From: Pseudolabrys sp.
Lineage (GTDB): Bacteria; Pseudomonadota; Alphaproteobacteria; Rhizobiales; Xanthobacteraceae
Assembly (NCBI GenBank): GCA_036265125.1
Contig: DATAPP010000177.1
Coordinates: forward strand, 26,505-90,504
Reading direction: 5' to 3'
DNA length: 64,000 nucleotides
The notes under the pieces were generated by a model, which saw nothing but the letters and a program-made list of their open reading frames with translations, did no database searches and was not told the origin of the DNA. Below, piece by piece: positions 10,542-52,559 of the stretch; within the stretch, counting starts at the first letter, position 1, and each line of letters begins with the position of its first letter. A program made the translations under genes and the position numbers.

Positions 10542-10574
10542 GATCTCTCGCTCCTGAGGGATGGCCTGACGGCG

Positions 10575-13442: not shown

Positions 13443-13444
13443 GG

Positions 13445-14323: not shown

Positions 14324-14326
14324 CGT

Positions 14327-15313: not shown

Positions 15314-15334
15314 GCTCTGATTCTTTGAGAATAG

Positions 15335-15366
15335 GGGCCCAGGGGCGTATGGATCGCCCCGGGCCC
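15335..15366 (-). other. Intra-operon stem-loop downstream of the binding-protein gene
   Basis: gggccc-a-ggggcg / tatggat / cgcccc-gggccc: 12-bp stem with one bulge between SBP and first permease; typical of mRNA-stabilising or attenuating hairpins. Confidence 0.6.
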
Positions 15367-15381
15367 ATGCTGCGCGTCAGA

Positions 15382-16824
15382 TCAGGTCGGCAGGGCTTTG
15401 GTCGGCATAACCGCCTTGTAGCTCTCGAGGTCCTTCTTGAGCTTGCTGCGGCCGATCCGGCCAATGATCGCGTTCCATTCGTTCTCGGTCTTCTTCAGCA
15501 CGTCCTTTGCCGGCAGTTGGCCGACGTAGGCTTCCGAAAGGTTCTTGCCGAGCGCATCCTGGAATTCGAGATAGCCCGTGAGGTAGATCGGCGGCGCGAC
15601 CACCTGGAAATTGGTCTCGACAGCTTTGATGCCCTCGGGCGTATAGGCCTTCAGCACCGGCTCCGCGGCCATGTGCTCCTTGGCCCAGGCGTCGTTGAAT
15701 GCGTTGACCGGATCGGAGACGATCGGGATGCTGTTCTTTCCAGACCCGAGCCACAGCGCCAGGTAAGCCGCCTGCGCCTTGCGCGGCGAGTACTTGTTGA
15801 TGAGGATCGCCGCCAGCGGCGACGAGATCGACCGGTGCACCATCTTGCCGGTGAAGTTCGAGCCCGGCACGAGGCTGTAATAGAACTGGCCAACGGTCTT
15901 CGACTGCTTCGGGTTTGCGATTGTCTTGCAGGTTCCGTCCCAGTACTGGCAGGCAACCACGTGCCCCTGCGCGATGCGCGGAATCATCTGCGGGGTGCCC
16001 CAGTTGGCCGCTTCCGGATGGTTCACCTTCTTGTCCTGCAGGTAGATGTCGACCGCGTATTGCCCGGCCGGCGTGTCGATCGTCGGTTTCATGTCGTCAT
16101 CGAAAGGGAATCCGCCGGCGCTGTAGAAGATCATGTACCACCAGGTCACGCCGTTTGCGCGGTTGCGCAGGTTGCCGGAGCCGTAGAGATCCTTCGACGG
16201 ATCCATGAGGAATTCCTGCACGCGCAACGTGTCTTCCCAGGTCACCGGAATTTTCAGCTCTGTGCCGAACTTGTCGGCGAAGCGCTTTTTGTTGTCCGGA
16301 TCGTCGATCAGGTCCTTGCGCGTGTACTGGATATGCACGTTGCCGTCGGTCGGAACGCCGTAGGTCTGGCCTCCGTACTTCATGAAGTTGCCGTAGTCGG
16401 CGACGGCGTCGAGATGAAAGCCGGCCTTCTTGATGTAGTCATCGAGCGGCTCGAGATAGCCGGCGGACGCGAGCGAAGGGATCATGTTCGAGTCGATATG
16501 GATGAAATCGAACTGCGGCGAACGAGACAGCGCCTCGGCCATCGCGCGCTGCGGGGCGTCGAAGATCGAGATGTCCTGCACCGCGCCTATGCCGATTCCG
16601 GTTTCTTTGGTGAACTCGGCAATGACAGGCTTCATCGGCACCAGATATGGCGACCAGATCATTCCGTTGACGTCCGCCTTTCCGGCTGCTTTCGCAGCCG
16701 CGATGGTTTGCTCCTCCATGGTGGCGGCACTGGCGAAAGGTGTTGTCCCCGGCACGAAATTGGCCACGGTCAGCCCGACACTGCCTTGCAGGAACGTACG
16801 TCGCGAAAAACCCGACCTGGACAT
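15382..16824 (-). CDS. Carbohydrate-type ABC extracellular solute-binding protein (family 1), Tat-exported
   Basis: Start MSRSGFSRRTFLQG (twin-arginine) after GAGGAGG RBS; SLASAGYLEPLD, TYGVPTD, P.TWED motifs. Confidence 0.9.
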   Translation of the reverse strand: MSRSGFSRRTFLQGSVGLTVANFVPGTTPFASAATMEEQTIAAAKAAGKADVNGMIWSPYLVPMKPVIAEFTKETGIGIGAVQDISIFDAPQRAMAEALSRSPQFDFIHIDSNMIPSLASAGYLEPLDDYIKKAGFHLDAVADYGNFMKYGGQTYGVPTDGNVHIQYTRKDLIDDPDNKKRFADKFGTELKIPVTWEDTLRVQEFLMDPSKDLYGSGNLRNRANGVTWWYMIFYSAGGFPFDDDMKPTIDTPAGQYAVDIYLQDKKVNHPEAANWGTPQMIPRIAQGHVVACQYWDGTCKTIANPKQSKTVGQFYYSLVPGSNFTGKMVHRSISSPLAAILINKYSPRKAQAAYLALWLGSGKNSIPIVSDPVNAFNDAWAKEHMAAEPVLKAYTPEGIKAVETNFQVVAPPIYLTGYLEFQDALGKNLSEAYVGQLPAKDVLKKTENEWNAIIGRIGRSKLKKDLESYKAVMPTKALPT

Positions 16825-16883
16825 GACTTCCTCCTCGCCTGTGTTGGTCTTATGCGTTGACCTGTGAAGTAACCCGGCGGAGT

Positions 16884-16986
16884 GTGCTCCCCCGCACAAG
16901 AGCATCAAGCTGCGACTGCACGCAGCCCGAAAAGCCGAGCATCGACAATGGAAGGGCTTTCGTTGCCTGCGCGGGGCAGGGAGCAC
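16884..16986 (-). ncRNA. Candidate structured 5' leader (three-way junction) of the ABC/CocE operon
   Basis: By eye on the minus strand: 17-bp P1 with a 4-nt bulge and 2 G-U pairs, plus two internal hairpins; ends 60 nt upstream of the ATG; matches no riboswitch I recognise. Confidence 0.4.
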
Positions 16987-17267
16987 GCATACTTTCAACC
17001 ACCCGTTCGCGAGAGGAAAAACCCAAAAGGCCTCCCGTCACTTTGGCCCTGACGCGCTCAGTCGGCCTACGGCCATGGCGGGTCAAGACGACTTGGTACA
17101 ATCAGCGCGTTTAGCTCCCCAGACGTCCGCGTTGATGCCGCGGTCAATGTTTGAACACATCGTATGGTGATGGGTTTCAATCCGCAACACACTTCAGTGC
17201 CGCGGATGGACGAAAAGAAGCAGTCACGTTGCAAGCAGATCGGCCCAGAAACGCCGTGGTCTGAACA

Positions 17268-18326: not shown

Positions 18327-19055
18327 TCAGTGCTGCAGAATCTTCGACAGAAACATCTGCGCCCGTTCGCTGCGCGGCTTGCCGAAGAAATCGGCGGTTG
18401 CGGCATCCTCGACGATCTCGCCTTTGTCCATGAACACGACGCGGTTCGCGACCTTGCGGGCAAAACCCATTTCGTGCGTCACCACGATCATAGTCATGCC
18501 GTCTTTGGCGAGTGCCACCATGACGTCGAGCACTTCGTTGATCATTTCCGGATCGAGCGCCGAGGTCGGCTCGTCGAACAGCATGGCGATCGGATCCATC
18601 GCCAGCGCACGCGCAATGGCGACGCGTTGCTGCTGGCCGCCGGAGAGCTGGCCGGGATATTTGGCGGCATGTGCGCTCAGGCCCACGCGTTCGAGAAGCT
18701 TCATGCCTTTCTCGGTGGCAGTCTTCGGATCGCGGCCAAGCACCTTGATCTGTGCCAGCGACAGATTGCGTATGACGGAGAGGTGAGGGAAGAGTTCGAA
18801 ATGCTGAAATACCATGCCGATGCGGGCGCGGAGCTTCGGTAGCCTGGTCTTCGGGTCGCCGACCGAAATCCCGTCGACCGTGATGGTGCCTTTCTCGAAC
18901 GGTTCAAGTCCGTTGACGCATTTGATCAAGGTCGATTTTCCGGACCCCGACGGGCCGCACACCACCACGACCTCGCCTTTGGCGACCTCGGCGCTGCATT
19001 TGTCGAGCACCTGCACCTTGCCGTACCATTTGCTGACATTGCTGATTGTAATCAT
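18327..19055 (-). CDS. gltL: Glutamate/aspartate ABC transporter ATP-binding protein
   Basis: VCGPSGSGKSTLIKCVNGLE, MVFQHFELFPHL, LSGGQQQRVAIARALAMDP. Confidence 0.9.
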   Translation of the reverse strand: MITISNVSKWYGKVQVLDKCSAEVAKGEVVVVCGPSGSGKSTLIKCVNGLEPFEKGTITVDGISVGDPKTRLPKLRARIGMVFQHFELFPHLSVIRNLSLAQIKVLGRDPKTATEKGMKLLERVGLSAHAAKYPGQLSGGQQQRVAIARALAMDPIAMLFDEPTSALDPEMINEVLDVMVALAKDGMTMIVVTHEMGFARKVANRVVFMDKGEIVEDAATADFFGKPRSERAQMFLSKILQH

Positions 19056-19073
19056 GGACGCTTTCTTGGGTGC

Positions 19074-19766
19074 TCAGCGTATGATGGCGATGCGGTGCTG
19101 GAGACGGCGTACGCCGTAGGATGCGGCGAGCGAAATGACAAAATAGACGACCGCGGCGAACAGATACATCTCGACCAGGCGTCCGTCGCGTTGGGCGACC
19201 TTGGACGCCGCGCCAAGGAAGTCGGTGACCGAGATCACATAGACCAGCGATGTATCCTGAAACAAAATGATGGTCTGCGTCAGCAGCACCGGCACCATGT
19301 TGCGGAAGGCTTGCGGCAGGATGATTTCCGCCATCGCAGTCCAGTAGGGCATGCCGAGGGCCTGCGCCGCCTGGACCTGGCCGCGCGGAATCGACTGGAT
19401 GCCGGCGCGCATGATCTCGCAGAAATAGGCGGCTTCGAACAATGTGAAGGTTACCAGCGCCGAGAGGAACGCGCCGACCTGGATCGGCCGTTCGGCACCA
19501 GTGAGCCATTGTCCAATATAAGGCACCAAAAAGAAGAACCAGAAGATCACCAGAACGAGCGGCATCGAACGGATCAGATTTACATAGGCGCCCGCGACAT
19601 GGGAGAGGCCGGGTATGTTCGAGAGCCGCGCCAGCGCCAGCAACGTGCCGATCACGATGCCGCCGGCGGTCGCCATCAAGGTCAACATGATGGTGAAGCG
19701 CATGCCCTCGAAAAACAGATACGGCAGCGAGCGGAGGATGACGTCCCAGTCGATATTGGAGAACAT
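19074..19766 (-). CDS. gltK: Glutamate/aspartate ABC permease
   Basis: FEAAYFCEIMRAGIQSIPRGQ, QTIILFQDTSLVYV. Confidence 0.88.
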   Translation of the reverse strand: MFSNIDWDVILRSLPYLFFEGMRFTIMLTLMATAGGIVIGTLLALARLSNIPGLSHVAGAYVNLIRSMPLVLVIFWFFFLVPYIGQWLTGAERPIQVGAFLSALVTFTLFEAAYFCEIMRAGIQSIPRGQVQAAQALGMPYWTAMAEIILPQAFRNMVPVLLTQTIILFQDTSLVYVISVTDFLGAASKVAQRDGRLVEMYLFAAVVYFVISLAASYGVRRLQHRIAIIR

Positions 19767-19775
19767 CGTCCGCCC

Positions 19776-20525
19776 TCAATGCGCCGCCGCCGGTTGGCCC
19801 ATGCTGATGAAGCCGGGCACCGCGACGCGCTGTTCGAGCCAGCGCATGCCGCTCACAACAACGATGTTGATGATGATGTAGATCAAGGTCGCGCCGGTGA
19901 AGGCCTCGAACACCTGAAAGGAAAATTCCGACATTGAGCGCGCTGCGGCGGTGAGCTCGATGAGCCCGATGGTCAGCGCCACCGAGGAATTCTTGATGAT
20001 GTTGAGGAATTCCGAGCTCAGCGGCGGCAGGATGATGCGAAACGCCATCGGCAGCAGAACGTAGCGATAGGTCTGCGGCAGCGTAAGGCCCATCGCGAGA
20101 CCGGCCATACGTTGGCCGCTGCGCAAGCTGAGAATTCCGGCCTTGACCTGTTCGGCGACGCGCGCCGAGGTGTAGAGGCCGAGACAGATCACCGCATTGT
20201 AGAAGGAGGCGTTGGCCAACTGCTTGAGCCAGTCGCCAATTGCCTGGGGCATGACTTCCGGCAACACGAAGTACCACAGGAACATCTGCACCAGCAGGGG
20301 AATGTTGCGGAACAATTCGACATAGGCATTGCCGAGTCGTACCAACCACGGGACCGGCGAGGTGCGGATCACCCCGACGACAGCGCCGATCGAAAGCGCG
20401 ATTGCCCAGGCGAGCAGCGCCGTCGCCAGTGTCCAGCCGGCGCCGAACAACAGAAGCTGCGCGTACGTGTAGGTGCCGTCCGGGGAAAGCTGAAAGAAGA
20501 TTCCCCAGTTCCAGTTGTAGCTCAT
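19776..20525 (-). CDS. gltJ: Glutamate/aspartate ABC permease
   Basis: MSYNWNWGIF, YVELFRNIPLLVQMFLWYF, YTSARVAEQV, FLNIIKNSSVA. Confidence 0.88.
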   Translation of the reverse strand: MSYNWNWGIFFQLSPDGTYTYAQLLLFGAGWTLATALLAWAIALSIGAVVGVIRTSPVPWLVRLGNAYVELFRNIPLLVQMFLWYFVLPEVMPQAIGDWLKQLANASFYNAVICLGLYTSARVAEQVKAGILSLRSGQRMAGLAMGLTLPQTYRYVLLPMAFRIILPPLSSEFLNIIKNSSVALTIGLIELTAAARSMSEFSFQVFEAFTGATLIYIIINIVVVSGMRWLEQRVAVPGFISMGQPAAAH

Positions 20526-20551
20526 GCGTGCAGCATCCCCCTGACGCAATT

Positions 20552-20576
20552 GCGGCGCGGTTTTAGGCGGCGCCGC
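20552..20576 (-). other. Stem-loop between gltI and gltJ
   Basis: gcggcgc...gcgccgc 7-bp inverted repeat in the gap after the binding-protein gene. Confidence 0.45.
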
Positions 20577-20599
20577 GAAGTCTAGCGTCTATTTGGAGG

Positions 20600-21502
20600 C
20601 TATTGGTAGTCTTTGGGGTCGCCGCTGTCGGTCGGTTTGGCGACGACCTTCTTGAACGCCGCGCCCATCGGCAGGTTGAGATTGACGCCCCTGGGCGGGA
20701 TCGGCTTGAGGAACCACTTGTCGTAGATCCCGTTGATCTCGCCGCTCTTGTAGACGGCAACCATGGCGTCATCGACCACTTTCTTGAATGCCGGATCGTC
20801 CTTGCGCAGCATGATTCCATAGGGCTCAACCGACAGTGCAGCGGCGGAGATTTCGTAGTCTTTCGGCTCCTTCGAGCCTGCGACAAGGCTGTAGAGCAAA
20901 ATGTCGTCCATCACGAAGGCGGCGGCGCGGCCGGTCTCGACCATCAGGAAGGCCTCGGCGTGATCCTTGGCCGGCAGAATGGTGAGACCGAGATTTTTCT
21001 CGGTGTTGAGCTCGGTGATCTGCTTGATGTTGGTGGTGCCGGAGGTCGAGACCACGGTCTTGCCCTTGAGGTCCTCGAGCTTGTCGAGCTTGCTGGCCTT
21101 TTTCGATACGAAGCGGTTGGCCGTGACGAAATGGGTGATCGTGAAGGAGACCTGCTTCTGCCGCTCGAGATTGTTGGTCGTCGAGCCGCATTCAAGATCG
21201 ACCGTGCCGTTCGCGATGAGCGGGATACGCGTGGCGGATGTAACGGGCTGTAGTTTGACGTCGAGCTTGGCCAGCTTGAGATTTGCTTTCACCGCATCGA
21301 CGATCTTGTTGCAGAGGTCCATGGCGTAACCGACGACCTGCTGCTTGTCGTCATAATAGGAAAATGGAATCGAGGATTCACGATGGCCGATCGTGATCGT
21401 ACCCGTATCCTTGATTTTCTTAAGCGTTCCTTCCTGCGCTACCGCGGTACCGGCGAGCAGGCCGGTGGCAGCAATTGTCATGGCTATCGCCTTCAAACGC
21501 AT
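20600..21502 (-). CDS. gltI: Glutamate/aspartate ABC substrate-binding protein
   Basis: Signal peptide; GHRESSIPFSY, VTSATRIPL..NGTVDLECGSTTNN.ERQKQV, FVMDD.LL. Confidence 0.9.
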   Translation of the reverse strand: MRLKAIAMTIAATGLLAGTAVAQEGTLKKIKDTGTITIGHRESSIPFSYYDDKQQVVGYAMDLCNKIVDAVKANLKLAKLDVKLQPVTSATRIPLIANGTVDLECGSTTNNLERQKQVSFTITHFVTANRFVSKKASKLDKLEDLKGKTVVSTSGTTNIKQITELNTEKNLGLTILPAKDHAEAFLMVETGRAAAFVMDDILLYSLVAGSKEPKDYEISAAALSVEPYGIMLRKDDPAFKKVVDDAMVAVYKSGEINGIYDKWFLKPIPPRGVNLNLPMGAAFKKVVAKPTDSGDPKDYQ

Positions 21503-21828
21503 CGAAACCCCCGTAAAATCCACGCATTATCCGATGATGCGGCGCCGTTATGGTGCCGGACGGTTGCGTGACCGGGTTTTATCATAGTCCCGGGGCTGAT
21601 TTCCAAACATAGGTGACAGCGTGATCGGGTGAGGTGACCTGTATTGTCAGCCTGGACGTCAACCTTGGCCCAAAAAGCGGATATTCCGCCGTGTCCAAGC
21701 CGTGTTTGCTCAAGGGCCACACAACGGCGGAACTGGAACTGATGCGGGGCGATCAAGACCTCGTGACGACAACGCAGGATCGGTCCGGCCGTGGTGTTCA
21801 TTGCATAGATCAACCAAAGGAGGGTCTG

Positions 21829-22224
21829 ATGCGTAGGCTTCTAATTGCCTTGGCAATCGCACTGCTGCCCTCGATTGCTCTCGCGCACGGTCATGGCGGA
21901 GGTGGCGGCGGTCACGGCGGCGGTCACATGGGTGGTGGCTGGAGTGGCGGTCACATGGGTGGTGGCTGGAGTGGCGGTCGCGTAAGCGGTGGCATGAGCA
22001 GCCGCGCCGCTGTCGGTGGCGTCCGCGTTGGCGCCTGGAACGGCAGCCGGTCGGCCGCGTGGAGCCGAGGCGCCTTCCACGGCCACGGAAGGTTCGTGCA
22101 TCGCCACGGCCGAGTCTTCTTCGTCGGCGGCGGACCGTGGTGGGTCGACGGCTACGACAGTTGCTGGAGCTGGGTTCCGACGGCGTGGGGACCGCGTCGC
22201 GTCTGGGCCTGCGACTACTTCTAA
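21829..22224 (+). CDS. Small secreted Gly/His/Trp/Arg-rich protein (Rhizobiales type)
   Basis: GGAGG RBS; signal peptide MRRLLIALAIALLPSIALA; GGHMGGGWS repeats; C-terminal CWSWVPTAWGPRRVWAC. Confidence 0.8.
   Translation: MRRLLIALAIALLPSIALAHGHGGGGGGHGGGHMGGGWSGGHMGGGWSGGRVSGGMSSRAAVGGVRVGAWNGSRSAAWSRGAFHGHGRFVHRHGRVFFVGGGPWWVDGYDSCWSWVPTAWGPRRVWACDYF
21919..21979 (+). repeat. 27-bp tandem repeat, about 2.3 copies (GGHMGGGWS)
   Basis: ggcggtcacatgggtggtggctggagt exact at 21919-21945 and 21946-21972, partial third copy. Confidence 0.9.
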
Positions 22225-22413: not shown

Positions 22414-23439
22414 TCACAATGTACGCGTCACTTTGCTCAGGTAAGGCGGATTGTCGGGATCGAAGCCTCGCCGCCGAGCGATTACCTCGATGGCGCGGTA
22501 GGCCGGGATGAGCATAACGACGGGATCGCAAACCGGGTGGCCGTCGCCGATCCAGGGCAGCGTCCCTGCCGCGCCTCCGGCGATGAACACGGTTTCACCC
22601 GCATCGTTCAGGTCACTGACGAGGTCGTCGATAGCGACAGCGGCCGGGTCGTTCTGTCGCAACACCAGCACCGGCGTTGTCGGCGTGATCGATGCGCGCG
22701 GGCCGTGCCGCAGTTCGGCTGCGCTGTAACCGAGAGCAGGAACCCGCAGGATTTCAGCGACCTTGAGCGCGATCTCGCGGACGCAACCGAGGCCATATCC
22801 ACGTCCTACGATAAACGCTGCCGTGGCGCCCGCCGCATTGTCGGCCCAGGCCGACCAATCGCAGGCGAGCGCGCCGGACAATCGGAGCGGAAGATGCTGG
22901 AGGCCGTCGTTCAGATCGTCGCCGCGTGCCATCGTCGCTACCAGCCGCGCTCCGGCAATCATCGACAGCACGACGGTCTTGGTCGCCGCGACGGCGTGCT
23001 CGGTTCCCGCGCCAATTGGCAAGACCAGCTCGGAGGCGGCGGCAGCGGGAGAGTTTTCGTCATTGACGATGGCAAGCGTCAGCGCCCCGAACTTGCGCGC
23101 AACTTGCGTCGCTTCGATGAGATCGGGACTGCGCCCGGACTGCGACACCACGACGAACAAGGCGTCCCGGAAATCCGGAGGCCGCTGATAGGCCGTCACG
23201 ACGGAAGGTGCGGCGGCGGATGCGAGCAGGCCAAGCCGCGCCTCAAAAAGGTAGCGCAGATAAACTCCGACATGACCGGAGCTGCCGCGCCCGCAGAAAA
23301 CGACGATGCGCGGCCTGGCCCGCTCGAGCCGCTCGGCGATCGCCGCGAACACATCGGTACGCGCGAGAAGACGCTCGGCCGCCGCCGGGATTTCGGCGGT
23401 CTCGCGTGCCATTGCACTTCCCGTATTTGATTCAGCCAT
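22414..23439 (-). CDS. Double-SIS protein, glucosamine-6-phosphate deaminase NagB-II/GlmS C-terminal-like
   Basis: GRGSSGH, SQSGRSPD, AVAATKT, GRG...REIALK.AE, AELRHGP; start overlaps the murQ stop. Confidence 0.87.
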   Translation of the reverse strand: MAESNTGSAMARETAEIPAAAERLLARTDVFAAIAERLERARPRIVVFCGRGSSGHVGVYLRYLFEARLGLLASAAAPSVVTAYQRPPDFRDALFVVVSQSGRSPDLIEATQVARKFGALTLAIVNDENSPAAAASELVLPIGAGTEHAVAATKTVVLSMIAGARLVATMARGDDLNDGLQHLPLRLSGALACDWSAWADNAAGATAAFIVGRGYGLGCVREIALKVAEILRVPALGYSAAELRHGPRASITPTTPVLVLRQNDPAAVAIDDLVSDLNDAGETVFIAGGAAGTLPWIGDGHPVCDPVVMLIPAYRAIEVIARRRGFDPDNPPYLSKVTRTL

Positions 23440-24337
23440 CGTCGTCCGTGGAGGCGTCCCTGGACGCGTTGATGGCCGAGCGCAGATTGCCACCGTGGCG
23501 CTGCAGCAGCTGCGCGGCTTCGCTGCGGCTCAGTCCCAAGCCGAGCAGGACAGCCGTCTTCACATGCCCGTCTGCCTGTTCAAGATAGCGCGCCGCGTCG
23601 CCTTCCGGACAGCGGACAATTTCGCTGACCATGGCTTCCGCGCGCCGGCGCAACTTGGCGTTCCGCGCCCGCATATCCACCATCAAGCCGCGATAGACGC
23701 GGCCCATCTTCACCATCACGGCAGTCGAGAACAGGTTCAGCACGATCTTCTGGGCAGTGCCTGCTTTCATCCGGGTTGAACCGGCGATCACCTCGCTTCC
23801 CGTGTCGGCGAGGATGCGATGACGCGCGACCTCAAACAGCGGAGCGCCCGGGTTGTTGGCGACGGCGATTGTCACCGCACCCAGGGCACTGGATGCGCGC
23901 AAGGCGCCGATCGTAAACGGAGTCGTGCCACTCGCGGCGACGCCGATGACGACATCATTGGCGCCGATCTTTGCGTCCGTCATGGCCTGCGCCCCGGCGG
24001 CTTCGTTGTCTTCCGCCTGCTCGGCGCTGCGGACGAGCGCGTCAAGCCCGCCTGCCATGGCGAATACAAGACGATCGGGGGGCCAGTCATAGGTTGGCGG
24101 CAGCTCGCTTCCATCCTGCACGCCGATGCGCCCGGACGTGCCGGCCCCGGCGTAGACAATCCGTCCGCCTTGCTGCAGCGCCAGCACCGCGTCGTCAACG
24201 GCTGCGGCGATCGCGCCGAGGGCGCCGCGAACTGCCGCGGCTGCCGCAAGCTGCCCCTCATACATGGCGGCGATCATCTCGGCTGCGGACCAGGAATCGA
24301 GTTCGACGTAACGTGGGCTGATTTGCTCGGTGCGCAT
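23432..24337 (-). CDS. murQ: N-acetylmuramic acid 6-phosphate etherase
   Basis: TEQISPR..ELD, YAGAGTSGRIGVQDGSELPPTY, AED, GSEVIAGSTRMKAGTAQK.VLN, MVDM. Confidence 0.92.
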   Translation of the reverse strand: MRTEQISPRYVELDSWSAAEMIAAMYEGQLAAAAAVRGALGAIAAAVDDAVLALQQGGRIVYAGAGTSGRIGVQDGSELPPTYDWPPDRLVFAMAGGLDALVRSAEQAEDNEAAGAQAMTDAKIGANDVVIGVAASGTTPFTIGALRASSALGAVTIAVANNPGAPLFEVARHRILADTGSEVIAGSTRMKAGTAQKIVLNLFSTAVMVKMGRVYRGLMVDMRARNAKLRRRAEAMVSEIVRCPEGDAARYLEQADGHVKTAVLLGLGLSRSEAAQLLQRHGGNLRSAINASRDASTDDDG

Positions 24338-24406
24338 GACCCTGTCTCGGTTATGTCGCTAACGCGGCCGGCTTTCGCTCCATTTCGATACGTCGGCGCG
24401 CGGACA

Positions 24407-25297
24407 CTATCCCTTCATGACGGCACGCCGGGCGAGATGCAAGGCGCCATCCAGCGCATCGCCCTCGACCGGAACCAGCCGACGTTGGACATCCGGCGCC
24501 AGCCACGGCTCCATCGACGATGCGAGGCCGCCGAGCAGGGCGATGCGCGAAGCGCCGCACTCGAAGAGCCGGCGCACCAACTCGTCGATCTGCTCCGCGG
24601 CGTCCCGGACGATCCGCCGCGCCACCGGATCTCCGGCATCCGCGTGCCGCATCACCAGGGGTGCGAAGGTCGCATAGTCGGTGGCCGTCGCGTGATCCAT
24701 CCAGGCCACCACCTCGAACGGATCGTTGTGGAAGCGCATCATCACGTCGCGCGTGAGGCTGGTGCCGACGGCGCGCTCGTCGTAGGCGCGCAACGCCAGA
24801 CGGATCGCGTGCAACCCGAGATCGGCCCCGCTACCCTCGTCGGATATGGGAAAACCGTAGCCACCAACCCTGACCTCGCGTTCCCCGACAACGGCAAAGC
24901 CGACGCTACCCGTTCCGACGATGACGATGCCACCGTCCCGGGCGCCATGCGCCCCGATACAGGCGATCGTCGCGTCATGAGCGTAAATGACAGAGCGAAA
25001 GGGATGCGGCCGTAGCTCGAGCTGCTCGAGCACCCCTTTGCGGCCGATCCCGGCGAGCCCGACAGCGGCATGCACGGAGCCCAGTACGTTAGGTCCAAGC
25101 CCGGCTTCCTCGAGCGCGACGCGGCAGGCCTTTTCCACTTCGGCAAGCGCGCGGTCGACTCCGATTCGCAGCGCGGCAGGGCCGGCAATGCCGGTCCCGA
25201 GCAGGCACCCCTCGGCGTCCTCGATACGCGCGCGGCAGCCCGTGCCGCCGCCGTCAACGCCGACGAACAGCGCACCAGATTGTGCGGTCGCCGTCAT
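24407..25297 (-). CDS. BadF/BadG/BcrA/BcrD-type N-acetylglucosamine/N-acetylmuramate kinase (NagK-II/MurK-like)
   Basis: VGVDGGGTGCRA, HDATIACIGAH, IVIVGTGS, GGYGFPISDEGSGA, LLGGLA; ATGA overlap with the murA stop. Confidence 0.88.
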   Translation of the reverse strand: MTATAQSGALFVGVDGGGTGCRARIEDAEGCLLGTGIAGPAALRIGVDRALAEVEKACRVALEEAGLGPNVLGSVHAAVGLAGIGRKGVLEQLELRPHPFRSVIYAHDATIACIGAHGARDGGIVIVGTGSVGFAVVGEREVRVGGYGFPISDEGSGADLGLHAIRLALRAYDERAVGTSLTRDVMMRFHNDPFEVVAWMDHATATDYATFAPLVMRHADAGDPVARRIVRDAAEQIDELVRRLFECGASRIALLGGLASSMEPWLAPDVQRRLVPVEGDALDGALHLARRAVMKG

Positions 25298-26556
25298 TCT
25301 GCGACTCGCTGGATATCGGCCCCGCACTGAACCAGCTTGCGGTCGAGCGACTCATACCCGCGATCGAGATGGTAGATGCGATGGACGGTCGTTTCGCCCT
25401 CGGCCACCAGGGCGGCGAGGACCAGGCTCACCGATGCGCGCAAGTCTGTAGCCATCACTTCCGCGCCATGCAGCCGCTCAACGCCACGCACCAGCGCCGT
25501 CGAACCTTGCAGCGAGATGTTGGCACCGAGCCGCCCGAGTTCGGGGACGTGCATGAATCGGCTCTCGTACACAGTCTCGCGGATGACCGATGCACCTGAT
25601 GCGATGATCATCAAGGCCGTGAACTGCGCCTGCAGGTCCGTAGGAAATCCGGGATAAGGTTCCGTCACGACGTCGACGGCCTGCAGGGGCCCAGAGCGGA
25701 CAACCATCAGACCCCGGTCGGTCGGCCAGATCTGGACTCCGGCACTTTCCAGCACCGCGCCGACCGATCCGAGATGCTCGAGATGCGCGCCGAGAATCTC
25801 GAGATGTCCGCCGGTGATCGCAGCCGCGATGGCGTAGGTCCCGGCCTCGATGCGGTCAGTGATCAGATCGTGGTGGGCGTCGTGGAGGGCATCCACCCCC
25901 TGCACCAGAATCCGATGCGTCCCGACACCTTGGATGCGCGCTCCCATCGCGGACAGGCAGAGCGCAAGGTCGCTGACTTCGGGATCGCGCGCCGCGTTCA
26001 GGATCTCGCTTTCACCCCGTGCGAGGATCGCCGCCATCAAGGCCGTCTCGGTCGCTCCCACGGACGGCGAGGACAGCACGACGCGGGCGCCGCGCAGCCC
26101 GTCGCCTTTGGTCCGCGCGTGAATGTAACCGGACACGATGTCGACGTCGGCCCCGAGCGCGTCCAGCGCCTTGAGATGCAGATCGATCGGCCGCGCGCCG
26201 ATCGCGCAACCTCCGGGCAACGACACGCGCGCAGAACCGAAACGTGCCAGCAACGGTGCCAGAACCAGAATGCTGGCGCGCATGCGGCGGACCATGTCGT
26301 AGGGCGCCTGCGCGTTGCGCGCGCCGCTGGCATCCAGCACCAGCATTCGCCCAGGGCCGCGACTGGCGACCACGCCAAACTCCCGCATCATAACGAGCAT
26401 GGTGTCGACGTCCGTCACTTCGGGAACGTTTCCCAACTCCAGCCGTCCGGAACCGAGCAACGCAGCGGCAATCTGCGGCAGAACGGCGTTCTTCGCCCCG
26501 CAGATCTGGACCGAGCCTTCAATGCGATTGCCGCCACGAATGACTAGTCGGTCCAT
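25294..26556 (-). CDS. murA: UDP-N-acetylglucosamine 1-carboxyvinyltransferase (probable paralogue)
   Basis: GAKNAVLP, MRASILVLAPLLAR, VSLPGGCAIGARPIDLH (Cys115/Arg120 equivalents), SVGATE, GFPTDLQAQ, ATDLRAS, HLDRGYE. Confidence 0.95.
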   Translation of the reverse strand: MDRLVIRGGNRIEGSVQICGAKNAVLPQIAAALLGSGRLELGNVPEVTDVDTMLVMMREFGVVASRGPGRMLVLDASGARNAQAPYDMVRRMRASILVLAPLLARFGSARVSLPGGCAIGARPIDLHLKALDALGADVDIVSGYIHARTKGDGLRGARVVLSSPSVGATETALMAAILARGESEILNAARDPEVSDLALCLSAMGARIQGVGTHRILVQGVDALHDAHHDLITDRIEAGTYAIAAAITGGHLEILGAHLEHLGSVGAVLESAGVQIWPTDRGLMVVRSGPLQAVDVVTEPYPGFPTDLQAQFTALMIIASGASVIRETVYESRFMHVPELGRLGANISLQGSTALVRGVERLHGAEVMATDLRASVSLVLAALVAEGETTVHRIYHLDRGYESLDRKLVQCGADIQRVAE

Positions 26557-26692
26557 GCTGTTTCTCTTTTCGTCGCCTGGCCTGCGATCAGAAAAAGCGG
26601 GCACCGGCTTTGCGTCTGGTCAGATCGGCGCATCATCCTGTCGGCAAACGGTAGGCCGGTGACGCTCTGGGTATTCGGCGTCCTTTAACTTA

Positions 26693-26717
26693 GATTGGAT
26701 TTGTTGCGATACCAATC
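26693..26717. promoter_or_regulatory. Candidate operator in the murA/nagA divergent promoter region
   Basis: GATTGG-N13-CCAATC inverted repeat; includes GATACCAAT (reverse TGGTATC), resembling GntR-type amino-sugar regulator half-sites as I recall them. Confidence 0.3.
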
Positions 26718-26736
26718 CAGCCTGTCATGGACATCG

Positions 26737-27918
26737 ATGAGCCCGGGCCGAAACAATCCTGCAACCGCCGACAGTCATGCCATCCTGGCGGACCGTGTTT
26801 TTGACGGTCACGGCTGGCATGCCGAAGCCGCGGTGCTGGTCCGGGACGGACGCATCGCTGGACTGGGTGCCTGGGGCGATGTTTCCACCGATTGGCCGCA
26901 GACGCGCCTCCCGCGCGGCGTCTTCCTGGCCCCCGGCTTCATCGATCTGCAGGTCAACGGGGGCGGCGGCGTTTTGCTCAACGATCAACCGACGGCCGAC
27001 GGCATGCGTGCCATTGCCACGGCGCATCGCCGCTACGGCACCACAGCCTGCCTTCCAACCCTGATTACCGATACCCGCGAGCAGATGCGAACCGCCATTG
27101 CGGCTGCTCGCTCGATCGCCGGCCGGGACGGGGTCCTCGGTCTTCACCTGGAAGGTCCCTTCATCAGTCCGCAGCGTCCAGGCGTCCACCGGCCTGATCG
27201 GATCGCGCAACCCGCTGCGGGCGACCTGGAGGAATTGTGCGAACTTGCCGGCGCCGGCAGGTCATTGGTGACGCTGGCGCCCGAATGCGTTCCGGCGGGC
27301 TTTATCAGGACGTTGGTCTCCGCAGGAGTGCGGATTTCAATTGGCCACAGCGAGGCATCCGCTGGCGTTGTGATGCAGGCCGTCGCGGATGGTGCAACCG
27401 GCGTGACCCATCTGTTTAATGCAATGCCGCCGTTGAGTGCGCGTGCACCGGGGATCGTCGGTGTGGCGCTGGCAGAACGCCGGCTGACGGCAGGTCTCAT
27501 CGTCGACGGAATCCATGTCGATCCCGCTTCGGTCCGGGCCGCGTTTGCGGCGAAAGGCTACGACCGAATTGCGTTGGTCACCGATGCCATGCCGACAGTC
27601 GGGACATCGCTGGATCGTTTCGAACTGGTTGGTCGAACGATCAAGCTGGCTGACGGGCGGTTGACCACGGAAGAGGGAACGCTGGCGGGTGCACACCTGG
27701 ATATGGCCTCGGCGGTGCGTAATGCTGTCGGGCTGGCCAAGCTCCCGCTGGAGGACGCGCTGCGCGCCGCTTCGCTGACCCCCGCGCGATTTCTCGGCCT
27801 GGACAATGAGCGCGGATCGCTCGTTCAGGGCGCGCGCGCGGATCTCGTTGCTCTCACTGAGGAGATGAACGTCGTTGCAACCTGGCTCGACGGCAATACC
27901 GATACGAAAAGCGATTGA
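26737..27918 (+). CDS. nagA: N-acetylglucosamine-6-phosphate deacetylase
   Basis: PGFIDLQVNGGGG, GLHLEGPFI, VTLAPE, IGHSEA, VTHLFNAM, IVDGIHV, LVTDAM, LAGAHL. Confidence 0.95.
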   Translation: MSPGRNNPATADSHAILADRVFDGHGWHAEAAVLVRDGRIAGLGAWGDVSTDWPQTRLPRGVFLAPGFIDLQVNGGGGVLLNDQPTADGMRAIATAHRRYGTTACLPTLITDTREQMRTAIAAARSIAGRDGVLGLHLEGPFISPQRPGVHRPDRIAQPAAGDLEELCELAGAGRSLVTLAPECVPAGFIRTLVSAGVRISIGHSEASAGVVMQAVADGATGVTHLFNAMPPLSARAPGIVGVALAERRLTAGLIVDGIHVDPASVRAAFAAKGYDRIALVTDAMPTVGTSLDRFELVGRTIKLADGRLTTEEGTLAGAHLDMASAVRNAVGLAKLPLEDALRAASLTPARFLGLDNERGSLVQGARADLVALTEEMNVVATWLDGNTDTKSD

Positions 27919-27941
27919 CGCGGTGAATCAGCCTACGGCTT

Positions 27942-29144
27942 TCAGTAACGCAGGTGTTGCTGACGCTGGCCCAACCAAGCCTGCTCATCGGGTAACGCCA
28001 GCCGATCCAGGTCCTGCGGTGCCGCCGACGCATCGTCGACCCATTCTCGCAGCAACGGGCTGCCGTTGATGACATCGATAGGGAGTCTGCCGCGCTCGTA
28101 CTCGTAGGCGAAATCGCGCCACAGCGGGTAGTCCGGGTACAAACGGCGAATCGCCTTGAAAGCGAGCGCCTGGAGGCGCCAGGGTCTGAATGTCTGGTGA
28201 TCGTAGCCGGCCCCCTCAGTGTGTATCTGCACGCCGTGGCAAAGCTCACCCGCATGTTTGTGAAACGTGGGTTCGAACCAGCATTCGCGCAGGCGGCAGC
28301 CATCGAGCCATTGCGGGGCAAGGATCTCAATTTCCTTCATGACCGCTCGTGCATCCACATCGGGAGCGCCGAACTGCTCGAGCGGCCGCGTGGTGCCGCG
28401 TCCTTCCGAGAGCGTCGTGCCCTCGAGCATCACTGTCCCTGCATAGGCGCGCGCCATCCACAAGTTCGGCGCATTGGGACTGGGATTGATCCACGTGCGC
28501 GCGTTCAACGGCCAACCGAACCCCGGCGCGGCGTCGGGCTGCCAGCCCTGCATCTCGATAACCCGATACTCGACATCGAGTTTGAGCGTCCTGACGAACC
28601 ACAGACCCAGTTCGCCGAGCGTGAGTCCATGACGCATTGGCATCGGCCCGGCGCCGACAAAACTTTCCCAGCCGGCGCGCAGCGTTAAACCTTCGACAGG
28701 CCGGCCCACAGGATTGGGCCGATCGAGCACCCAGACAGTCTTGTGATGTTGCGATGCCGCTTCGAGAATGTAACGCAGGGTCGTGACAAACGTATAGATA
28801 CGGCAGCCAAGATCCTGCAGGTCGACAAGGATCACATCGAAGGCGTCCATCATGGCATCGGTCGGCTTGCGCACGTCTCGATAGAGGCTGAAGACCGGGA
28901 TGCCATGCACCGGATCGTTGAAGTCCGGCGACTCGATCATGTTGTCTTGCTTGTCGCCGCGCAGGCCGTGCTGCGGGCCGAAGGCGGCACTGATTGTCAT
29001 GCCGCTGCATGCGGCCAGTGCATCCAGCGTGTGCGTCAGGTTTTCCGTGACGGAAGCAGGATGCGCAAGCAACGCGACGCGCTTGCCCCTGAGTGGCGCA
29101 CGCAAAGTGGGTTCGGCGATGAGTCGATCGATGCCAAACTTCAT
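27942..29144 (-). CDS. namZ: DUF1343 / exo-beta-N-acetylmuramidase NamZ family protein, no signal peptide
   Basis: FGPQHG, PVFSLY, DLQDLGCRIYTF, VLDRPNP, RHGLTLGEL, PSPNAP, EGTTLSEGRGTTRPLE.FGAP. Confidence 0.88.
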   Translation of the reverse strand: MKFGIDRLIAEPTLRAPLRGKRVALLAHPASVTENLTHTLDALAACSGMTISAAFGPQHGLRGDKQDNMIESPDFNDPVHGIPVFSLYRDVRKPTDAMMDAFDVILVDLQDLGCRIYTFVTTLRYILEAASQHHKTVWVLDRPNPVGRPVEGLTLRAGWESFVGAGPMPMRHGLTLGELGLWFVRTLKLDVEYRVIEMQGWQPDAAPGFGWPLNARTWINPSPNAPNLWMARAYAGTVMLEGTTLSEGRGTTRPLEQFGAPDVDARAVMKEIEILAPQWLDGCRLRECWFEPTFHKHAGELCHGVQIHTEGAGYDHQTFRPWRLQALAFKAIRRLYPDYPLWRDFAYEYERGRLPIDVINGSPLLREWVDDASAAPQDLDRLALPDEQAWLGQRQQHLRY

Positions 29145-29695
29145 GGTTGCACGGCCGGAGAAAACTCATGCGCAAAAGAGTCCGCGTGATGAAAGTCCGG
29201 CTTCCCGGGCGGATGCGCCAGCGCCCAGTATGACTTTTGGCCACCTGTATCTTCGATTAACGCCGACAAACCGAGACGCCACAAGGCCTTACGTGGCAAA
29301 TCCGACAGGCGATCCAGCTCGAGCGAGGTCTCCAATGTGTAGCAGTCGGGGCTCGATCGCACGTCGATTGGAGGCGCGCCGATCTCGGTCGCCACACTCA
29401 TACCGCTTCTATAGCTGCTGAACCGATATGCCGCCCATTGTGTCGAAGGCGCAAAGTTGAATTCGTAATATTCCACGCCCGATGAAGCCCGGACAAATGC
29501 CTCAAAGCAGGTGTGCCGCCAAAGCTCGTCGCTGCGCACGGCGGCCGCGACATGCGGCATGCGGATGTCGCTCATCTTGCCGGTCACGATATAGGACAAC
29601 ACCAAACTATCGGTGCGCGGACGCGCAATCTCTACTTCAACGTGGGCCGCTGCCAGGCAACGCGAGTCCGGATGAGGTTTCAGCACGTGGCGCAT
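29141..29695 (-). CDS. DOMON-like domain protein (resembles the DOMON_murB_like group)
   Basis: DELWRHTCFEAFV, YYEFNFAPS..WAAYRF..YR, YWALAHP.GKPDFHH; ATGA overlap with namZ. Confidence 0.75.
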   Translation of the reverse strand: MRHVLKPHPDSRCLAAAHVEVEIARPRTDSLVLSYIVTGKMSDIRMPHVAAAVRSDELWRHTCFEAFVRASSGVEYYEFNFAPSTQWAAYRFSSYRSGMSVATEIGAPPIDVRSSPDCYTLETSLELDRLSDLPRKALWRLGLSALIEDTGGQKSYWALAHPPGKPDFHHADSFAHEFSPAVQP

Positions 29696-29776
29696 ACCGA
29701 CATTCTATAGGTCGGATCATTGTTGTCACATGGTGCAGAGACGGTGCTTGCTCGGGAGCGCCGAGCCTGCGGGTCA

Positions 29777-30274
29777 TCAAATTGCCGATCGGCCGGGACT
29801 GGCGACTCGCGCGCGCGGAGGCGAGAAACGGTACGCCATGCGGGCATGGCCCGCACAGTAGGACACTCCGCCGGCCGTGGTGTTGCCGCAAAAGGCGAAG
29901 CCGGCAGTGGCGGCGGCGCTGATGGGCCAGCGGCACTTACGCGGCGCGAGGTTGAGCAGCGAACAGGGCTCCGTGCTCACGACATCGTCGGCAACAGGCT
30001 CCGATGCAAACAGTGCTTTAAGCGCCAGCCGCTGGGTGAAGACCTGAGGCCGCCGCATTGGCGCGCCTAACCGCGTTCGCGGCGCGGCGGGATTTCTGCC
30101 ACGCGACAGACCGAGACGGTTGATCTTGCCGATAACGGCGTTGCGGGAGACACCAATCTCGTGGGCAATTTGTGCGCAGGACAGGCCGGCGTTGACGCAA
30201 CTTCTGAGCATATCCACGCGCTCGGCAGTCCAGGTCATATGCAAATTTTTGCTGGAGTTTTCGGTAGCGGTCAT
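29777..30274 (-). CDS. gcrA: GcrA cell-cycle regulator family protein (paralogue)
   Basis: WTAERVDML...GLSCAQIA..IGVSRNAVIGKINRLGL N-domain; C-terminal CRWP...FCG...YC..H..AY. Confidence 0.88.
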   Translation of the reverse strand: MTATENSSKNLHMTWTAERVDMLRSCVNAGLSCAQIAHEIGVSRNAVIGKINRLGLSRGRNPAAPRTRLGAPMRRPQVFTQRLALKALFASEPVADDVVSTEPCSLLNLAPRKCRWPISAAATAGFAFCGNTTAGGVSYCAGHARMAYRFSPPRARVASPGRSAI

Positions 30275-35512: not shown

Positions 35513-35788
35513 CTAACGCCTGCCGCGAAAGTTCGGCCGGCGTTGCTGAGGAGCGGGGGACGGAGCATCACCTTTATGGCGGAAACTGATGCGGCCGCGC
35601 TGCAAATCGTAGGGTGACATCTCCACGATCACGCGGTCGCCCACGCCGGTGCGGATGCGGAATTTGCGCATCTTCCCCGCCGTGTAAGCGAGCACCTCGT
35701 GCTCGTTGTCGAGCTTCACCCGGAAATTGCCGTCCGGCAGAACCTCGGTAACCGTCCCATCGAACTCCAGCAGTTCTTCTTTCGCCAT
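35513..35788 (-). CDS. infA: Translation initiation factor IF-1
   Basis: [44 protein letters not shown]...[16 protein letters not shown]. Confidence 0.97.
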
Positions 35789-35808: not shown

Positions 35809-37224
35809 TTAACGCGGCGCTCGGCGGCCAGCATTACGGCGCGGCTCGCCCGGGCGCTTGAGGAATGTAACATTTCCAATGCCGCTTGGCTCCCCTGCCA
35901 CGGCGTCCTGCCGGGCGGGCGGCTGGTGGCCATTGTGGCCTGCCCGGCCTTGGTGGCCGTTCCCGCCGTGGTGCGAGCGCTGGCCGTTGCCCGAGTGCTG
36001 ACCGTTCCGTCCGCCGTGACCACGCTGGCGCTGACCGCGGTGCGGTCGGCCATTGCGGGTCTCGGCATGCTGCGGTGCCGGATGAGGACGCTCGCCGGTG
36101 CGTCGGTCGGTTGCCGGAATGGTCATCCGGATCAGCCGCTCGATGTCGCGCAGGTAGGCCCGCTCCTCGTGATCGCAGAACGAGATCGCGATGCCCTCGG
36201 CGCCGGCGCGCGCGGTGCGGCCGATGCGGTGAACATAGCTCTCGGGGATGTTCGGCAGATCATAGTTGACCACGTGGCTGACGCCGTCGACGTCGATGCC
36301 GCGGGCGGCAATATCCGTCGCAATGAGTGTGCGCAGTTTGCCGTCACGGAAGGCTGCGAGCACACGCTCGCGCTGGCTCTGCGACTTGTTGCCGTGGATC
36401 GCTTCGGCGGTGTGGCCGGCCTTGTGGAGGCCGCGCACCACCTTGTCGGCGCCGTGTTTGGTACGGGTGAACACGAGTACCCGGTCGATATTTTCACCCT
36501 TCAGCACTTCGGCCAACAAAGCCGGCTTCGACGCCTTGTCGGTCAGGATGACGCGCTGATCGACGCGCTCGGCGGTGGTGGCCTGCGGCGTCACTGCGAC
36601 GCGCGCCGGGTCGCGGAGCATAAAGGCGGCGAGCTGTACGATTTGCTGAGGCATGGTGGCCGAGAAGAACAGCGTCTGTCGCGCTTTCGGCAGCATGGCG
36701 ACGATCTTCTTGATGTCGTGAATGAAGCCCATGTCGAGCATGCGGTCGGCTTCGTCCAGCACCAGCACTTCAACCTGGTCGAGGCGCAGTGCACGCTGAT
36801 TGACCAGATCGAGTAAGCGGCCAGGGGTTGCCACCAATACTTCGACGCCGCGCGCGAGCGCACGCACCTGCCGGTTAATCGGAACGCCGCCAATCGCCAG
36901 GGCGATTTCGAGCGGACGGATGTGACGGCCATACGCGCGGAAACTATCGGCGATCTGACCGGATAACTCGCGTGTGGGCGAAAGCACCAGCACGCGGCAG
37001 GATTTCTGCGCGGGCCGCTGACGCTTGTTGAACAGATGATTCAGGATCGGCAGCGCGAAGGCTGCGGTCTTGCCTGTGCCCGTCTGCGCGATGCCGATGA
37101 CATCGCGGACTTGGGACGCAAGAGGAATGGTCTGGGCCTGGATCGGAGTTGGAGTGACGTATTTCTCTTCGGCAAGGGCGCGAAGGATCGGCGCTGCGAG
37201 GCCGAACTCGTTAAATGAAGTCAA
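35809..37224 (-). CDS. rhlE: DEAD-box RNA helicase
   Basis: Q motif, [48 protein letters not shown]; disordered H/G/R-rich tail; TTG start. Confidence 0.93.
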
Positions 37225-52043: not shown

Positions 52044-52559
52044 ATGAAGCTGATCGAAAAAAAAGAGTTGGCACCGTGGGTCAAAAGAAAGTTGGCCCGT
52101 CTCAGCGTTCTTTTGGTGTTCGGTGCCGCATTGTCGGCAATTCCCTTACTCAGTGTCTCGAGCGAAAATACCTTTGATCGCATTCAGGCCGGCGAGTGGG
52201 TGACGGCTTCGATGTATTGGGAAGACAAGCTGGTTTCGACCGGCAAGAGCTTCAATCCGATCGGATGGCACGCCGCCCATAAGACGTTGCCGATTGGAAC
52301 ATTGATCCGCGTGTCGAATCCCAAGAACCATCGCTCGATCAACGTGACGATCAACGATCGCGGGCCGTTTGTAGCGAACCGGGACCTGGATCTCAGCCTT
52401 GGTGCTGGCACATTGTTGGGGCTTCAAGGACTGGGTACCGTCTACATGGAAGTTCTCTCGATCCCGCCCATAAAGAACATGCGACGGCCGGTGGTGGAGA
52501 GCTTGTTTACGGTGAGTGATGCCAACGCCAACTGCGTGGGTGGCGTCGCCGCCTGCTAG
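52044..52559 (+). CDS. RlpA-like double-psi beta-barrel protein (no SPOR domain, no lipobox)
   Basis: AS.Y, AAHKTLPIGT.IRV.N, INDRGPF, DLDLS. Confidence 0.82.
   Translation: MKLIEKKELAPWVKRKLARLSVLLVFGAALSAIPLLSVSSENTFDRIQAGEWVTASMYWEDKLVSTGKSFNPIGWHAAHKTLPIGTLIRVSNPKNHRSINVTINDRGPFVANRDLDLSLGAGTLLGLQGLGTVYMEVLSIPPIKNMRRPVVESLFTVSDANANCVGGVAAC

Follow-up and report, generated by a model that had tools for sequence, protein, structure and literature searches.

MurA catalyses the committed step of peptidoglycan synthesis and is the target of fosfomycin; to our knowledge, Gram-negative bacteria are usually taken to have a single MurA. Our analysis of 64,000 nucleotides of DNA from a soil Pseudolabrys (Xanthobacteraceae; contig DATAPP010000177.1, hereafter the window) revealed a murA gene that heads a block of genes for the salvage of peptidoglycan sugars and falls into a MurA clade separate from the canonical enzymes of Hyphomicrobiales. 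The reading that we favour, and hold to be probable with some reserve, is that the block is the lineage version of a conserved Hyphomicrobiales peptidoglycan-sugar salvage module, headed by a second, functional-looking MurA isozyme (MurA2) that would return recovered amino sugar to wall synthesis. Every part of the module is a known enzyme family; the novelty lies in a second, conserved MurA and in its coupling to salvage.

Genes were called by listing of open reading frames (ORFs) and by profile searches against NCBIfam and Pfam. All seven genes named in an earlier note on this DNA were found, with the same coordinates and identities, and are listed here together with the two control regions.

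22414-23412, minus strand: double-SIS NagB-II-like protein, 332 amino acids from M28; alternative start at 23439
23432-24337, minus strand: murQ, N-acetylmuramic acid (MurNAc)-6-phosphate etherase, 301 amino acids; 69 nucleotides 3' of the kinase gene
24407-25297, minus strand: BadF/NagK-type sugar kinase, 296 amino acids; start overlaps the murA stop (ATGA)
25294-26556, minus strand: murA paralogue, 420 amino acids, with the ATG at profile position 1; first gene of the operon
26660-26725, no strand assigned: conserved control region of the murA operon and the opposite nagA, kept in most of about 39 aligned distinct sequences, while the remaining spacer varies
26737-27918, plus strand: nagA, N-acetylglucosamine (GlcNAc)-6-phosphate deacetylase, 393 amino acids from the called start
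27942-29144, minus strand: homologue of the namZ family (GH171) of exo-beta-N-acetylmuramidases, 400 amino acids
29141-29695, minus strand: p184, a small protein of 184 amino acids; overlaps namZ by ATGA and is translationally coupled to it
29702-29729, minus strand: sigma-70-like promoter GTGACA-N16-TAGAAT, ending 6 nucleotides before the p184 ATG

The nagA gene points away from murA, and the p184-namZ pair converges on nagA, the true start of which is probably 26737 and not 26695, as gene callers and the sequence itself indicate. That the deaminase gene overlaps murQ, as described in the earlier note, holds only for the longest ORF, the start of which at 23439 would overlap the murQ stop. 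It does not hold for M28 (23412), the start favoured by gene callers and profile alignment, which leaves a 19-nucleotide gap after murQ containing a GGGAAG ribosome-binding site.

The window MurA and the canonical enzyme

The window MurA exceeded the cut-offs of both MurA models, TIGR01072 (531.8 bits, cut-off 392.7) and NF006873 (555.3 bits, cut-off 297), and has the EPSP_synthase fold (PF00275, 324.9 bits). Canonical Hyphomicrobiales MurA proteins of 429-430 amino acids, sampled from Shinella, Sinorhizobium, Neorhizobium, Pseudochrobactrum and Methylobacterium, show 69-90% identity among themselves but only 50-57% to the window protein. The latter therefore stands outside the canonical group, taken as proteins of about 429-430 amino acids sharing at least about 69% identity within the order. 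In a neighbour-joining analysis, the window MurA and its clade mates, 418-residue copies from Rhizobium, Neorhizobium, Mesorhizobium, Chelativorans and Brucella anthropi, formed one clade with 100% bootstrap support and the canonical Hyphomicrobiales proteins a separate clade, also with 100%; the deeper branching was not resolved. Comparison with proteins in the PDB was uninformative as to the placement of the clade, the scores to Firmicute and gammaproteobacterial MurA being about equal. The separate clade and the range of identities confirm that this murA is a genuine paralogue and not the housekeeping gene, as the earlier note had considered.

The active site was compared in an alignment of 29 members of the paralogue clade, the E. 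coli enzyme and 11 further MurA proteins. Twelve positions (in E. coli numbering K22, N23, R91, C115, R120, D123, S162, G164, D305, D369, R371 and R397) are invariant in all 29 members. They cover the catalytic Cys115, Asp305 and Lys22 as well as residues that bind phosphoenolpyruvate (PEP) and UDP-GlcNAc. Only four clade-specific substitutions were found, all of them conservative (L47V, D257E, G380A and E403D). The statement that all key MurA residues are intact was thus borne out by the alignment, which argues for a catalytically canonical UDP-GlcNAc 1-carboxyvinyltransferase belonging to a 'murQ-operon' MurA clade. A further suggestion, of a MurA paralogue with another acceptor, fared less well. 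Such an enzyme might transfer enolpyruvate onto a different acceptor, for example a sugar phosphate made by the kinase, or might run in reverse and recover PEP from an enolpyruvyl sugar during catabolism. The invariable coupling to a sugar kinase and the deep split from housekeeping MurA would suit a diverged function, and the MurA family does include members with other acceptors, e.g., NikO. Nevertheless, a new acceptor substrate is unlikely because all catalytic and substrate-binding residues, from K22 to R397, are kept in the extra MurA, the four substitutions are conservative and the score lies far above the murA equivalog cut-off; we consider a different job for this enzyme quite improbable.

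Alphaproteobacterial murA was said in the earlier note to sit usually near hisD, and canonical copies were indeed found in the context murA-DUF2948-hisD-UPF0262-(phosphatase)-infA-maf. The window has neither hisD nor DUF2948, and the same is true of about 40 related loci. A canonical Pseudolabrys copy was identified by querying a 50%-identity representative library with canonical Methylobacterium MurA, followed by cluster look-up. The cluster of a 429-residue representative contains HEV8464383.1, 'UDP-N-acetylglucosamine 1-carboxyvinyltransferase [Pseudolabrys sp.]' (P0511), which on many soil contigs is encoded in the order murA-DUF3574-DUF2948-hisD-UPF0262-low-molecular-weight phosphatase-infA-maf-yacG. 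This protein shares 53% identity with the window MurA and 74-76% with the canonical MurA of Methylobacterium and Microvirga, and it falls inside the canonical clade. Since a canonical MurA labelled Pseudolabrys is thus encoded in the hisD context, the genus has both murA types, and the check for a second housekeeping murA proposed in the earlier note was positive at the genus level, by the label of metagenome-assembled genomes (MAGs). Two other searches added little: the 120 matches listed for the window MurA as query were, without exception, near-identical proteins from Pseudolabrys and hence uninformative on a second copy, and a synthetic 'ancestral' canonical MurA built by parsimony returned only canonical proteins of Methylobacterium and Agrobacterium/Rhizobium and none from Xanthobacteraceae.

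These data also bear on whether the window murA might be the sole housekeeping murA of the organism, lying by chance beside nag and mur genes. It is the best-conserved gene of the block (85-97% identity), as might be expected of such a gene, and most Gram-negative bacteria have, as far as we know, been described with a single murA. However, its identity to the canonical MurA labelled Pseudolabrys in the hisD context is 53%, it clusters with Rhizobium copies that lie on accessory replicons, and its adjacency to the kinase gene and the ATGA overlap are kept across families. A sole murA is already contradicted at the genus level, and we regard it as extremely improbable. As a separate observation, Ruegeria pomeroyi DSS-3 carries a canonical-type murA-DUF2948 pair together with glmS on a 491-kb megaplasmid (locus L061, 6001-10129), that is, core wall-precursor genes on a secondary replicon.

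Conservation and variants of the operon

The exact window MurA was also found on soil metagenome contigs, where its neighbours are unchanged. A scan of species-representative genomes located the gene in about 43 MAGs, mostly labelled Pseudolabrys or Xanthobacteraceae, with the MurA identities given above, and the whole block p184-namZ / nagA / murA-kinase-murQ-nagB-II was recovered by tblastn in essentially all of them, i.e., about 40 species-level genomes. The outer flanks vary between species while the block persists, and it is therefore a conserved unit and not a chance neighbourhood. The ATGA overlap of murA stop and kinase start, pointed out in the earlier note, is real in the window and invariant in 41 of 41 related loci.

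The order murA-kinase-murQ, for which a synteny survey had been proposed, is kept in the roughly 40 Pseudolabrys-type genomes and in Rhizobium, Allorhizobium, Mesorhizobium and Brucella anthropi. A homologue search revealed that the clade of 418-420-residue proteins is widespread in cultured Neorhizobium, Mesorhizobium, Nitratireductor, Chelativorans and Brucella anthropi, and tblastn against plasmid records returned 418-residue copies, 62-68% identical, on megaplasmids of Rhizobium and Allorhizobium as well as on a plasmid of R. oryzihabitans that is conjugative and 339 kb long. The Brucella anthropi copy lies on a 2.07-Mb record (CP047599) and the Mesorhizobium copy on the chromosome. In R. 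tropici CIAT 899, R. lusitanum, A. pseudoryzae, R. oryzihabitans, Brucella anthropi and Mesorhizobium, a MurR/RpiR gene faces away from the unit of murA (418 amino acids), kinase and murQ. In R. tropici, B. anthropi and Mesorhizobium, murQ is followed by genes for an SBP_bac_5 protein, two permeases and a fused ATPase, which together make up a YejABEF-type ABC transporter; AnmK is encoded further along. The R. oryzihabitans version instead has a sugar-type ABC system and a HAD phosphatase upstream. In B. anthropi and Mesorhizobium a PF00144 'beta-lactamase family' protein of about 340 amino acids is encoded between the Yej-like transporter and AnmK (18398-20557 of locus L063 and 18559-20698 of locus L064, respectively); this protein of the MurR-type operons may be a muropeptide-processing peptidase or esterase. 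The window block is accordingly a lineage variant of a much wider operon, which elsewhere carries MurR, an ABC importer and AnmK.

The murQ gene follows the kinase gene in every locus except that of Chelatococcus, whose plasmid variant has murA-kinase-GntR facing away from murQ-SIS-nagA, so that murQ lies on the opposite strand from murA. On plasmid pCO-6 of Chelatococcus sp. CO-6 the murA gene is frameshifted near residue 248 and has no listed coding sequence (locus L056, 10001-11256), the kinase, murQ, SIS and nagA genes being intact. This split murA is either a pseudogene or a sequencing error; a frameshifted plasmid copy fits the view of the murA paralogue as a dispensable accessory gene.

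The MurR-type relatives raise the possibility that MurA2 is a damage-inducible backup, an extra copy switched on by wall fragments that raises tolerance of fosfomycin and wall stress, with the salvage flux being secondary and MurNAc-6-phosphate acting as a signal that would report wall damage or blocked synthesis. MurA2 of these relatives lies behind a MurR-type repressor gene and beside AnmK and a muropeptide-type Yej-like importer. Furthermore, Cys115 is kept, so that MurA2 is predicted to be targeted by fosfomycin, which additional copies would titrate, and MurNAc recycling genes determine fosfomycin tolerance in Agrobacterium (PMC9790009). The Pseudolabrys version, on the other hand, is joined to the purely catabolic nagA, NagB-II-like gene and namZ and has neither AnmK nor importer. 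A backup role, which we consider rather unlikely as the primary explanation, also overlaps largely with that of a salvage module headed by MurA2 instead of excluding it.

Two further observations concern the provenance of the block. Pseudolabrys-type block contigs also occur in MAGs labelled Gemmatimonadales, Anaerolineales and Deltaproteobacteria (loci L009 and L038/L041; protein P0104), one bin holding two different copies of the block (L038 and L041); these are probably mis-binned contigs or mixed bins. Horizontal transfer, suggested by the raised G+C content at 22-28 kb (0.64-0.67 compared with about 0.60), was rejected because the third-position G+C of these genes, 0.70-0.76, is within the range of the window.

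Salvage enzymes, control regions and the proposed route

Membership of the salvage families was supported by profile scores for most of the block. MurQ matched NF003915 (362.1 bits, cut-off 168) and NF009222 (301.9 bits, cut-off 255) and came slightly below the cut-off of TIGR00274 (296.6 bits, cut-off 302), and NagA matched TIGR00221 (305.5 bits, cut-off 225.65). The kinase has the BadF/BcrAD ATPase fold (PF01869, 116.7 bits, threshold 31.5) and matches 1zc6, a probable GlcNAc kinase, and 8zo3, a MurNAc/GlcNAc kinase, in the PDB; it is presumed to be a GlcNAc and/or MurNAc 6-kinase. The SIS protein is matched twice by PF01380 and also resembles the isomerase half of GlmS (124 bits).

Both domains of NamZ were found in the window protein (PF07075, NamZ_N, 237.8 bits; PF20732, NamZ_C, 146 bits), and its relatives in the PDB are 4k05 and 4jja. 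Its N-terminus, MKFGIDRLIAEPTLRAPLRGKR, judged by eye, has no hydrophobic signal sequence, and the ORF is not extendable upstream; the enzyme is therefore presumably cytoplasmic. NamZ of B. subtilis is secreted (PMC8054146). The small protein p184 had been called DOMON-like in the earlier note, a label that held up weakly: it matched PF16011 (CBM9_2) at 15.3 bits (E=0.017), under the cut-off of 25, as did 15 of 18 orthologues, likewise weakly and with a best E of 0.0024. We take CBM9_2 to belong to the DOMON-like Pfam clan, and p184 may be a remote relative of it at most. The protein was predicted, with low confidence, to be mostly beta-strand; it had no sequence or profile match in the PDB, and its AlphaFold2 single-sequence model (pLDDT, the predicted local distance difference test score, of 35) was unusable.

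Taken together, these enzymes would form the following route. Cytoplasmic NamZ, perhaps helped by the CBM9-like p184, would release MurNAc and GlcNAc from imported fragments of the MurNAc-GlcNAc type, which the kinase would convert to MurNAc-6-phosphate and GlcNAc-6-phosphate. MurQ would then take the lactyl ether off MurNAc-6-phosphate to give GlcNAc-6-phosphate, and NagA would deacetylate the latter to glucosamine-6-phosphate. This product could pass to fructose-6-phosphate through the NagB-II-like protein or, by way of GlmM and GlmU from genes located elsewhere, to UDP-GlcNAc. On the MurQ route the lactyl group derived from enolpyruvate is lost, so that any salvaged sugar bound for the wall has to be committed by MurA a second time. 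If an extra MurA were produced at a constant ratio to the kinase, the committed step would be raised just when the supply of salvaged amino sugar is high. The proposal of the earlier note that the module balances breakdown and resynthesis is, in this light, reasonable, if unproven.

The control regions are conserved as well. The nagA-murA spacer of the Pseudolabrys versions contains the palindrome GATTGG-N13-CCAATC (26693-26718), which occurs once in the window and overlaps a promoter-like sequence predicted toward murA, TTGGTA-N17-TAAGTT. It gave no convincing match to NagQ, NagR, NagC or CtrA boxes. In the MurR versions a different palindrome, TGGAATA-N3-TATTCCA, is kept between murR and murA. 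On the strength of the repressor gene and this conserved intergenic palindrome in relatives, MurA2 is predicted to be induced by MurNAc-6-phosphate, and the Pseudolabrys palindrome probably fills the same control role. The p184 promoter is conserved as TATAGAAT in closer relatives, and its end, 6 nucleotides from the ATG, suggests a leaderless transcript or one with a very short leader.

No terminator-like site was seen inside the four-gene murA-kinase-murQ-SIS unit. Contigs from soil metatranscriptomes, 93-99% identical and hence derived from related strains, were found for each block gene at similar low depth. Some of them bridge murA and the kinase gene (25096-25353 and 25149-25516) or murQ and the SIS gene (22960-23584), and coverage falls in the murA-nagA spacer. 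This pattern is consistent, if weakly, with co-transcription of the block genes.

Several points weigh against the reading of the block as a salvage module headed by a second MurA. The two murA types of Pseudolabrys are linked only through the genus label on MAG proteins, and no single assembly with both was found by protein accession ranges or shared samples. The best NCBIfam match of the kinase, NagK_SO3507, reached 270.1 bits, under the equivalog cut-off of 370, and the SIS protein scored 246.6 bits against NagB_SO3506 (NF046059), under the cut-off of 430; such sub-equivalog scores do not fix the specificities of kinase and deaminase. The metatranscriptome contigs are unstranded, of low depth and from related strains, and DNA carry-over is possible. 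The earlier note was right that transporter, anmK, amgK/murU and regulator are missing, as none is present in the conserved block and none was found in the scanned parts of the window (about 1-54 kb). Specifically, MurR, AnmK, AmpG and NagZ were not found in those parts, and the adjacent MurR/RpiR gene and dedicated importer of a MurR-regulated MurNAc operon are absent from both block and scanned window. The regulatory logic of MurA2, finally, is what we infer from sequence.

A more far-reaching version of this logic is tentatively put forward as a possibility that we rate below an even chance. The MurA isozyme of many Hyphomicrobiales may be inducible and wired to the sensing of peptidoglycan fragments (MurNAc-6-phosphate, through MurR or an equivalent operator), which would make it part of a feed-forward loop, in which products of wall breakdown directly raise the committed step and which would set intrinsic tolerance of fosfomycin and wall damage. 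Its invariable translational coupling to the kinase might even stem from a physical or kinetic partnership of the two enzymes. If true, feed-forward MurA2 would be the functional counterpart, in users of MurQ, of the AmgK/MurU bypass.

Flanking genes and relation to known systems

The flanks of the block encode gcrA, a polar-amino-acid ABC system, an aldo-keto reductase, a sugar ABC system and CocE/NonD hydrolases. The gene for the cell-cycle regulator gcrA (29777-30238, minus strand) lies immediately upstream of the p184-namZ promoter; because this flank recurs in the closest relative (locus L005) alone, the adjacency is probably incidental. A 196-residue ORF (21634-22224, plus strand), which separates the SIS gene from the amino-acid ABC operon, matches no Pfam family, is kept (75%) only in the closest relative and may not be a real gene. 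Tandem CocE/NonD-family hydrolase genes (8715-12329 and 12357-16998, both minus strand; 608 and 584 amino acids) lie downstream of the sugar-type ABC transporter, whose solute-binding protein is unusually long (538 amino acids) and has no NCBIfam match. A divergent paralogue of infA, encoding initiation factor IF-1 (35573-35788, minus strand), is directly beside a gene for an RhlE-type DEAD-box helicase (35809-37224, minus strand). It is 68% identical to the canonical IF-1 of the Pseudolabrys-labelled murA-hisD-infA locus, which is itself 96% identical to the IF-1 of Pseudochrobactrum. A small DPBB_1 protein (RlpA-like lytic transglycosylase fold; 52044-52559, plus strand) is encoded about 22 kb from the salvage block, with no evident link to it.

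MurQ is central in the window block as in the murQ-murP/murR operon of E. coli and the murQ-murR-murP-amiE-nagZ-namZ operon of B. subtilis, the latter of which also shares NamZ with the window. Like those MurNAc operons, the relatives of the window, but not the window itself, have a MurR/RpiR gene on the opposite strand adjoining the operon. In contrast to both, the window has a soluble BadF-type kinase in place of the phosphotransferase system (PTS) protein MurP, its NamZ is without signal peptide, and its block is without regulator or transporter. A BadF-family MurNAc/GlcNAc kinase next to murQ, independent of PTS, is likewise found in MurK-MurQ (murTKQ) of Tannerella forsythia and with MurK of Clostridium acetobutylicum. 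The window kinase, the sugar specificity of which is presumed, is nevertheless nearer the NagK_SO3507/1zc6 type than 8zo3, T. forsythia MurK was not among its PDB matches, and it is translationally coupled to MurA. We know of no murA in the E. coli murQ-murP/murR operon or in the MurK loci of Tannerella and Clostridium. The gene list of the B. subtilis MurNAc operon does not include murA either (PMC8054146).

The same three enzyme families make up the NagK-NagB-II-NagA GlcNAc pathway of Shewanella/Xanthomonas type, reportedly described by Yang et al. in 2006, and the best NCBIfam matches of the window proteins are the SO3507 and SO3506 models. The window differs from this pathway in its sub-equivalog scores for NagK and NagB-II, in having no NagP permease or NagR, and in the joining of these enzymes to murQ, namZ and murA. 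The MurAA/MurAB (MurA1/MurZ) pairs of Firmicutes provide a parallel from another phylum, with two MurA paralogues per lineage that are catalytically competent, here as judged by sequence. The Firmicute pair is reported to be under PASTA-kinase/ReoM-type signalling. Hyphomicrobiales MurA2 is instead marked by its placement in a MurNAc operon, and the bit scores of the window MurA favour neither Firmicute nor gammaproteobacterial structures in the PDB.

The AnmK-MupP-AmgK-MurU shortcut of Pseudomonas, Caulobacter and Agrobacterium has the same goal of bringing salvaged MurNAc to UDP-MurNAc and is linked to fosfomycin tolerance. Contrary to the window module, with its lactyl-removing MurQ and additional MurA, that route skips MurA and keeps the lactyl group. 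Caulobacter has no MurQ and relies on MurU (PMC13046382), and in Rhizobiales, which are without AmpG, muropeptides enter by YejBEF-YepA (PMC9790009). Full-text literature, of which coverage was incomplete, yielded Gram-positive two-MurA systems, mostly the Firmicute MurAA/MurAB pairs, along with known recycling pathways. No description of murA inside an alphaproteobacterial murQ operon was found there, which agrees with the earlier note in calling the module undescribed.

The presence of a conserved second MurA at the head of salvage operons in soil and plant-associated alphaproteobacteria and in the opportunist Brucella/Ochrobactrum anthropi points to an undescribed connection of the turnover of the wall with its synthesis. 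For annotation, a second 'murA' call in the same genome is no redundant error. The module offers a testable handle on how users of MurQ return salvaged sugar to the wall and why some of them tolerate fosfomycin.

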